Below are positions 47,418 to 48,008 of a stretch of 64,000 bases of DNA, in pieces (within the stretch, counting starts at the first letter, position 1; every line of letters begins with the position of its first letter). The DNA is from Gammaproteobacteria bacterium (lineage in GTDB: Bacteria > Pseudomonadota > Gammaproteobacteria > DASZBR01). A program made the position numbers and the translations under genes. The notes beneath the pieces are model-generated. The model saw only the letters and a list, made by a program, of their open reading frames with translations, made no database searches and was not told the origin of the DNA. The stretch is taken from positions 7,568-71,567 of the forward strand of contig JANRJR010000016.1 of the NCBI GenBank assembly GCA_033763845.1, written 5' to 3'.

Positions 47418-47666
47418 ATGTTAACGTCAGCAAAATCACTATTTACGGCAACTCTATTAACACTTGTTAGCGCAAATGCTCTTGCTGCAGCAACTCCCGC
47501 TACACCGGCAAAACCGGCTTCGCCTGCAGTTCCCAGTGTTCATCGCGCCATCCCTGCGACTCACGCAACTCCGGCCACGCCTTCACATGAAAAACTGAAA
47601 CACCATAAGAAACTTAAAGCTAAACATCATCGTCGCCATCATAGTAAACATCACAAAAAAGACTAA
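47418..47666 (+). CDS. small secreted Ala/Thr/Pro-rich protein with His/Lys-rich basic C-terminal tail
   Basis: 82 aa. Signal peptide (LLTLVSANALAA). ATPA/ATP repeats. Tail HEKLKHHKKLKAKHHRRHHSKHHKKD. AAAGGGAG Shine-Dalgarno 7 nt upstream. Confidence 0.55.
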   Translation: MLTSAKSLFTATLLTLVSANALAAATPATPAKPASPAVPSVHRAIPATHATPATPSHEKLKHHKKLKAKHHRRHHSKHHKKD

Positions 47667-47744
47667 AAATCGCTAGAGGGGCTTCACAGCAGACACTCTC
47701 CGCATTATGATAGCCGCCTTGTTAACCCTTTTGGAGAATACACC

Positions 47745-48008
47745 ATGTCAATGTTGAAAAAGGCTTTAGTTGCTGCTGCTGTTGCCGCTGTTGTTAGCAC
47801 CCCTGCATTTGCTGCTGATACAACAACCACTGCAACACAAGGTACGTCAGTAACAGCTACAACCGATACAAATTCTACAACGGCAACACAAACAGAAAAG
47901 AAAACCAGCCACAAAAAAATCGCTGAACATCGCAAAGGTGGAAAGAAGTTCAAGCATCACGAAGCAACGCAAACAAAACAAACTGAAACAACTGGCGCAA
48001 ACGCGTAA
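47745..48008 (+). CDS. small secreted Thr-rich protein with His/Lys-rich basic C-terminal region
   Basis: 87 aa. Signal peptide (AVVSTPAFAA). TTTATQ/TATTDT repeats. KKTSHKKIAEHRKGGKKFKHHE tail. GGAGAA Shine-Dalgarno. Followed by a bidirectional terminator. Confidence 0.55.
   Translation: MSMLKKALVAAAVAAVVSTPAFAADTTTTATQGTSVTATTDTNSTTATQTEKKTSHKKIAEHRKGGKKFKHHEATQTKQTETTGANA

Follow-up and report, generated by a model that had tools for sequence, protein, structure and literature searches.

His-rich disordered periplasmic proteins such as SilE and PcoE, which carry His/Met motifs and are encoded in silver/copper resistance operons, bind metals; among other His-rich polypeptides, the histatins are eukaryotic, and Hpn lacks a signal peptide and resides in the cytoplasm. 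In Escherichia coli, the asr gene is strongly induced at acid pH in an RstA/PhoB-dependent manner. Its product, Asr, is an intrinsically disordered chaperone/aggregase contributing to outer-membrane integrity (PMC10746267), which either drives or blocks the aggregation of proteins, according to the substrate (PMC13425233); at pH 4.4, it makes up about 2% of ribosome-profiling reads (PMC10746267). A pair of adjacent small genes, designated here g1 and g2, is located between a dusA-type gene and recJ in a 64-kb stretch of DNA (the window: contig JANRJR010000016.1 of assembly GCA_033763845.1, positions 7,568 to 71,567) from an uncultured gammaproteobacterium. Compared with the first-pass annotation of this DNA, two points are added below, namely the tandem paralogy of g1 and g2 and the recognition of Asr as their closest known analogue.

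Two adjacent small genes and their relatives

Both g1 and g2 are real genes, as is evident from their synteny in six lineages, from ratios of nonsynonymous to synonymous substitutions (dN/dS) of 0.10 and 0.28, respectively, and from conserved promoter, leader, and terminator sequences. The first-pass annotation had described them as neighbours of 82 and 87 amino acids (aa), each with a good Shine-Dalgarno sequence, and this description was confirmed in full (Table 1). The homologues that it proposed to look for were found in the gap between dusA and recJ of five other uncultured Coxiellaceae-type lineages. All true family members share the same gene order: giant Ras/RasGEF gene, hypothetical gene of 261-290 aa, dusA, the small gene(s), recJ, DUF498, ahcY, metK, and gyrB. 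One close relative, L001, an uncultured Coxiellaceae metagenome-assembled genome with a DusA identity of 87%, was found by scanning reference genomes with DusA; it has both small genes in the same position and order. In the comparison of the window with L001 (Nei-Gojobori), dN/dS of dusA and recJ is 0.11 and 0.08, and protein identity amounts to 60% for g1, 74% for g2, and about 86% for the neighbours. An identical g2 protein, with g1 adjoining, is called on three Logan contigs.

Word-indexed homology searches with g1 or g2 singly gave zero matches. An exhaustive phmmer comparison of g2 with 1.84 billion cluster representatives retrieved P0001 and P0003 as true relatives; a profile built from seven members of the family brought in P0004 and P0007 as well. 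Orthologues of g1 are present in L001 and L082, and those of g2 in L001, L082 (P0001), and the single-copy relatives P0003, P0004, and P0007. As judged from these searches, the genes constitute an orphan family confined to one clade of uncultured Coxiellaceae-type, Dot/Icm-bearing bacteria, in agreement with the lineage-specific pair initially proposed.

Several other matches were rejected. P0002, a further phmmer match of g2, is a low-complexity false positive, and L092, the sole match in a metagenome scan with the family alignment, is an unrelated 437-aa protein with only the signal peptide in common. The marginal profile matches P0005, P0006, P0008, and P0009 are compositional look-alikes, P0008 and P0009 being found in unrelated genomic contexts. 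These four proteins (L097, L098, L099) come from unrelated bacteria and have the same layout of signal peptide, ATPATP-type spacer, and charged tail, which suggests that either the design recurs or such sequences attract each other compositionally. The public gene calls for two true relatives, P0003 (123 aa, L083 6001-6372) and P0004 (148 aa, L096 97-543), begin too far upstream, adding 17-55 spurious residues ahead of the conserved MSMLKK/MLKK start with its own Shine-Dalgarno sequence; the P0003 call begins at the ATG within the TATGAT -10 box.

Each of the two genes is preceded by a putative near-consensus sigma-70-type promoter of its own, with 10 of the 12 consensus positions matched. The exact sequence CTTCACA-N17-TATGAT occurs twice in the window, before g1 and before g2, versus 0.18 expected occurrences, and CTTCACA-N17-TAT(G/C)ATA is common to all seven family upstream regions aligned. 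In all seven, the -10 box is also separated from the start codon by a leader of the type TTGTTAATCCTTGTGGAGA, and the same promoter and leader elements are visible in L093 and L096. The g1 site overlaps the start codon of the divergent dusA, while that of g2 lies in the 78-nt spacer between g1 and g2; between the window and L001, the coding DNA is less well conserved than the intergenic DNA that holds the g2 promoter and leader. The leader may be bound by a translational or transcriptional regulator; an RNA secondary structure was unsupported (covariation term -0.45), and no Rfam family matched it. Boxes for Fur, Zur, RstA, PhoB, PmrA, and CpxR did not rise above background when scanned with consensus sequences, of which the enterobacterial RstA/PhoB ones may not suit this host.

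The strong bidirectional terminator noted earlier behind the pair was recovered by direct folding of both strands: the hairpin at 48033-48064 has a free energy of -18.8 kcal/mol (z -4.9) on the + strand and -18.7 kcal/mol (z -3.7) on the - strand, and its T-tract overlaps the recJ stop codon (48064-48066). An equivalent hairpin, differing in stem sequence, is present in 6/6 lineages, and the stems of the window and L001 differ by a compensatory change, C>T paired with G>A. A pattern scan reported no terminator at this locus, probably because the stem runs on into the T-tract through A-U pairs, and alignment-based folding gave no information, the stems being out of register with one another. 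A third copy of CTTCACA, the heptamer that includes the -35 box, is present at 48027-48033, about 20 nt past the g2 stop codon and before the terminator, the copy belonging to g2 being similarly spaced from the g1 stop. It may be a scar or the microhomology of the tandem duplication; L001, L083, and L096 have not kept it.

Sequence comparison shows that g1 and g2 are tandem paralogues. In L082, the two copies are nearly identical in the signal peptide, MSMLKKSLIAAAMAAVISTPAFA and MSMLKKSLVAAAMAAVISAPAFA (pattern MSMLKKSL..AAAMAAVIS.PAFA), and the same leader and promoter precede both; the mature part of the first copy is of the g1 type, ATPATP...HAIPATPATPATPHHKIKKHHH. The alignment of mature g1 with mature g2 also beats shuffles (z 3.6). 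Two genes are found in the window, L001, and L082, and one in L083-88, L093-95, and L096, while by the identities of the flanking proteins the window groups with L001 and L093 with L096, L082 being nearest to L083. Loss or gene conversion in some lineages would therefore have to be assumed.

The chance that g1 and g2 are not two genes, but open reading frames (ORFs) arisen by chance in low-complexity DNA, or a single gene broken by a nonsense or frameshift mutation, is negligible. It is true that in the window they share a frame, with a single TAA and 75 nt between them, and that the antisense frames are open too, because the composition is skewed. However, the relative frames of the two genes differ in L001 and L082, the promoter, Shine-Dalgarno sequence, and signal peptide are separate for each gene, both genes are kept in three lineages, and purifying selection acts in the + frame. 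The differing frames together with the internal signal peptide rule out a single split gene, which the first-pass annotation had named as a case that would overturn its own description.

Composition and charge of the proteins in comparison with Asr

The signal peptides of g1 and g2, already pointed out in the first-pass annotation, were judged by the anatomy of the n-, h-, and c-regions and by the A-x-A site. All these elements are present and conserved, fitting predicted Sec-type peptides, and neither a lipobox Cys nor a twin-Arg motif occurs. In g1, the signal peptide is followed by a Pro/Ala/Thr spacer and the tail SHEKLKHHKKLKAKHHRRHHSKHHKKD, in which a degenerate four-residue (12-nt) periodicity of the form basic-basic-His-His extends over 2.8 copies. 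The mature part of g1 contains 11 His, 10 Lys, and 3 Arg, and g1 has the top His+Lys fraction among the 40-200-aa ORFs of the window. Similar His/Lys-tailed ORFs, which it had been suggested to seek elsewhere, are absent among these ORFs; none other is of the g1/g2 type. The earlier description of an Ala/Thr/Pro linker and a basic His/Lys-rich C-terminus in each protein holds for g1 and requires correction for g2. A low-complexity spacer is present in g2 as well, but it is Thr-rich (Thr/Ala/Ser/Gln) and devoid of Pro; the basic sequences are as quoted, but in g2 they form an internal cluster, EKKTSHKKIAEHRKGGKKFKHHE (residues 51-72), with only 4 His and no periodicity, after which the protein ends with 15 neutral Thr/Gln residues.

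In the family as a whole, the composition of the mature part is conserved, with a Thr/Ala/Pro spacer and a cluster of His and Lys/Arg, whereas its sequence is not: among the seven MSMLKK-type members, the average identity is 82.5% for signal peptides versus 33.8% for mature parts. The latter are 53-83 residues long, have 33-55% Thr/Ala/Pro/Ser and a grand average of hydropathy (GRAVY) of -1.25 to -1.64, and include 4-11 His, zero Cys, no more than one Met and no more than one aromatic residue, and 3-8% bulky hydrophobic residues; each member has 1-4 HH doublets. AlphaFold2, run on shallow alignments of 6 sequences, gave a mean predicted local distance difference test (pLDDT) score of 59.7 and a predicted template modelling (pTM) score of 0.15 for g1, with the signal peptide as the sole helix, and 55.5 and 0.12 for g2, with a four-residue helix (79-82) as the sole element. 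These models are consistent with intrinsic disorder of the mature g1 and g2 proteins. Pfam matches of the two (DUF4653, DUF3382, DUF2574, SelP_N, New_glue, and others) were all far below threshold and compositional.

Because His titrates, the calculated charge rises between pH 7.5 and pH 4.75, from +12 to +22 in g1, from +4 to +9 in g2, from about +1 to between +10 and +12 in the single-copy forms, and from +14.5 to +22.4 in mature E. coli Asr. On this calculation, the single-copy form appears to be an even purer His-driven charge switch than Asr.

By analogy of architecture and physical chemistry, with homology not demonstrable, Asr, an acid-shock protein of E. coli and further Enterobacterales, is the closest known counterpart of g1 and g2. 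Like Asr, the family members are small precursors with a predicted Sec signal peptide ending in AFA before an A, a Thr/Ala/Pro-rich stretch right after the cleavage site, and then a Lys/His-rich basic part with HHKK/KKHH motifs, with no hydrophobic core and no Cys. The two are also alike in dimensions and composition, mature Asr having 81 residues, a GRAVY of -1.45, 8 His, 53% Thr/Ala/Pro/Ser, and 0% bulky hydrophobic residues, and in the pH dependence of the charge, for which g1 is the member to be set beside Asr. In both cases, the gene is a stand-alone small one with its own promoter, outside any functional operon with enzymes. Unlike the g1/g2 family, Asr has long AQKAQAAKKH-type (Ala/Gln/Lys) repeats; the Asr family is described as a 'repetitive basic protein', whereas only the degenerate periodicity of the g1 tail is found here. 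Furthermore, His exceeds Lys in several members and many acidic residues are present in the single-copy ones, no samT/ydgU-like membrane peptide is encoded downstream, the second gene being a paralogue, and the host is not an enterobacterium but a member of Legionellales.

Functional interpretations

The reading favoured here, with a probability of roughly 0.4, is that g1 and g2 are, by analogy, Asr-like, pH-switchable periplasmic polycations protecting the envelope. The two genes would be transcribed separately, each from its own promoter-like site, and the products would be exported by the Sec-type signal peptide, cleaved, and then retained in the periplasm as flexible polycations, the charge of which would be set by His protonation. 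As reported for Asr, they may act as charge-regulated disordered periplasmic chaperones or protectants, possibly also as proton buffers, and on acidification of the periplasm they would keep the envelope proteins and the outer membrane intact. After the duplication, g1 would have diverged into a strongly cationic protein and g2 into a mildly cationic one. A wider proposal, tentative and rather doubtful, is that an orphan clade-specific family converged independently on the Asr design, i.e., a pure His-driven pH switch, a strong polycation below pH 6 with almost no charge at neutral pH, and was then duplicated into constitutively and mildly cationic copies, serving envelope protection or interaction with the host vacuole in uncultured Dot/Icm-bearing Coxiellaceae.

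Several observations weigh against an Asr-like role, and part of them also bears on whether the family could be related to Asr by descent. Within Legionellales, acidification of the vacuole is described as unusual (PMC13252051), and an acidic niche is therefore an assumption for this clade. No RstA/PhoB box above background was found at g1 or g2 with the enterobacterial consensus, which may not suit the host, and the many Glu/Asp residues beside His in single-copy members (HEHH, EHHAKRH) fit metal ligation as well as pH switching. The remaining points come from direct comparisons with E. coli Asr (b1597, sequence from NC_000913, annotated 'periplasmic chaperone Asr') and with the NCBIfam model NF033636 (acid_shock_Asr, curated cutoff 50 bits). 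BLASTP of g1 and g2 against Asr was not significant; hhalign of the family profile with Asr covered only 21 columns, at the cleavage junction S.AFAAETTTTPA (probability 90.6%); and the family profile search did not retrieve Asr. In Smith-Waterman alignments, the mature parts scored weakly above whole-sequence shuffles against mature Asr (z 0.9-3.3, compared with 3.5-12 in within-family controls), and with segment-preserving shuffles z was -0.01 and 0.72. When only the mature parts were scanned with the NCBIfam model, g2 scored 7 bits (E 9.5), and neither the other members nor shuffled controls gave a match. That the members are nevertheless highly diverged true homologues of Asr, and not analogues, is improbable. 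The model is matched by 7/7 members scanned, more than any other family, with a best E of 8.9e-6, the order of segments is the same, and the hhalign probability over the junction of signal peptide and TTTT is high; yet all scores are below the cutoff (22.6 bits, E 1.5e-4, for g2 and 15.3 bits, E 0.026, for g1), and the sub-threshold matches come from the signal peptide, without which they vanish. Moreover, the similarity of the mature parts is explained by the shuffles, neither the exhaustive phmmer search nor the profile search links any family member to Asr, and the long Asr repeats are missing. Membership in the Asr family was thus rejected on the sub-cutoff scores, BLASTP, hhalign, the shuffles, and the mature-only scan.

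The main rival of the Asr-like role, in itself rather unlikely, is the binding or buffering of divalent metals (Ni/Zn/Cu(II)/Co) in the periplasm by His-rich disordered sponges or chaperones, which would trap metal when it is toxic, or store it for uptake in the host cell when it is scarce. Phagocytic hosts use Zn/Cu intoxication, and His, with HH doublets throughout the family, is conserved in the tail more consistently than any other feature; single-copy members, in which it stands together with Glu/Asp in sequences like ERHEHHAKRHKAEHHAKRHH, are nearly uncharged at neutral pH, so that positive charge as such is not conserved. The predicted small, Sec-exported, intrinsically disordered, His-containing periplasmic proteins resemble SilE and PcoE in these respects, but differ from them in having 0-1 Met in the mature part, no metal-resistance operon, and no family match. 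The scarcity of Met and the lack of Cys argue against the binding of Cu(I)/Ag(I), none of the metal-protein families of Pfam or NCBIfam was matched at threshold, the housekeeping neighbours include no metal transporters or regulators, no Fur or Zur box stood above background, and g2 contains no more than 4 His. HH doublets and dense His with Lys/Arg are also shared with the histatins, Helicobacter Hpn and Hpn-like proteins, and the His-rich protein BRANT (NF047414); the BRANT model gave weak sub-threshold matches in 5/7 members (best E 4.3e-4), far below its 44-bit cutoff (10.7 bits for g2) and probably compositional. The histatin-type composition of the tails recalls another alternative, distinctly less probable than metal binding, in which the proteins are released past the outer membrane and act on other cells or polyanions as cationic His-rich peptides whose targets would be the host vacuole, competitors, lipopolysaccharide, or nucleic acids. 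A conserved signal peptide combined with a fast-evolving mature part, as in effector-like/antimicrobial peptide families, would fit such a role, and the Dot/Icm genes and the giant Ras/RasGEF protein indicate a eukaryote-associated lifestyle. On the other hand, dN/dS is well below 1, with no sign of diversifying selection, hydrophobic residues are nearly absent and no amphipathic helix is predicted, and neither a route across the outer membrane nor a nearby immunity or transport gene is indicated. A membrane-active amphipathic peptide in particular is unlikely, because the mature parts have so few bulky hydrophobic residues and no predicted helix.

Genomic setting and implications

The neighbours of g1 and g2 are housekeeping genes (dusA, recJ, ahcY, and metK). 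The window encodes DotD, DotC, and DotB, and the host is therefore a Dot/Icm-bearing bacterium of the order Legionellales. The dnaA-dnaN-recF-gyrB cluster lies about 5-10 kb from g1/g2, which places the locus near the probable replication origin, a high-dosage position. No known RNA family was found in the whole window.

Table 1. Positions of g1, g2, their putative signals, and surrounding genes (window coordinates unless a relative is named)
Feature	Position	Strand	Remarks
g1, coding sequence	47418-47666	+	82 aa
g2, coding sequence	47745-48008	+	87 aa
g1 signal peptide, MLTSAKSLFTATLLTLVSANALA before AATP	47418-47486	+	predicted cleavage after ALA
g2 signal peptide, MSMLKKALVAAAVAAVVSTPAFA before ADTT	47745-47813	+	predicted cleavage after AFA
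g1 promoter-like site	47342-47370	+	-35 TTCACA 47342-47347, 17-nt spacer, -10 TATGAT 47365-47370
g2 promoter-like site	47683-47711	+	-35 TTCACA 47683-47688, 17-nt spacer, -10 TATGAT 47706-47711
g1 Shine-Dalgarno, GGGAG	47407-47411	+	6 nt before ATG; kept in L001
g2 Shine-Dalgarno, GGAG	47733-47736	+	8 nt before ATG
g2 leader, TTGTTAACCCTTTTGGAGAATACACC	47720-47744	+	conserved; includes Shine-Dalgarno GGAG
Conserved leader in relatives	L082 1033-1057 and 644-668; L083 6027-6051; L093 4976-5000; L096 236-262		
Bidirectional intrinsic terminator	48033-48066	both	common to g2 and convergent recJ
dusA-type dihydrouridine synthase gene	46412-47359	-	divergent from g1
recJ	48064-49734	-	convergent with g2
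Hypothetical ORF	45597-46469	-	290 aa; no Pfam match; overlaps dusA 3' end by 58 nt
Giant ORF	34885-45543	-	3552 aa; Pfam Ras (E 6.6e-14) and RasGEF (E 3e-10), near N-terminus
Glutaminase gene	33923-34888	+	Pfam E 3.2e-89
dotD, dotC (PF16932), dotB-like, in a row	25162-27643	-	
dnaA-dnaN-recF-gyrB cluster	52556-58508	-	

Some of the surrounding genes deserve mention in their own right. The giant Ras/RasGEF protein is eukaryote-like, and its synteny is kept in relatives, where it has 4178 aa in L083 and at least 2821 aa in L093; the ORF between its gene and dusA has a counterpart of 261-283 aa in the same position in L083 and L093. A glutaminase gene is located 12.5 kb from g1/g2, not sharing an operon with them and with no demonstrated link to them; in E. 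coli, glutaminase gives glutamine-dependent acid resistance.

No new mechanism or pathway is indicated by the g1/g2 family, which is a modest lineage-specific case from uncultured organisms with an inferred function. It illustrates how gene callers overlook small low-complexity genes or misplace their starts, and how a signal peptide alone can produce sub-threshold family matches. If the Asr-like function is true, charge-regulated disordered periplasmic protectants would not be confined to enterobacteria, and the single-copy forms would provide a clean natural example of net charge set almost wholly by His protonation. Such protectants would then have arisen, or diverged past recognition, in an intracellular Coxiella-related lineage in which tolerating the chemistry of the vacuole is central to the way of life.

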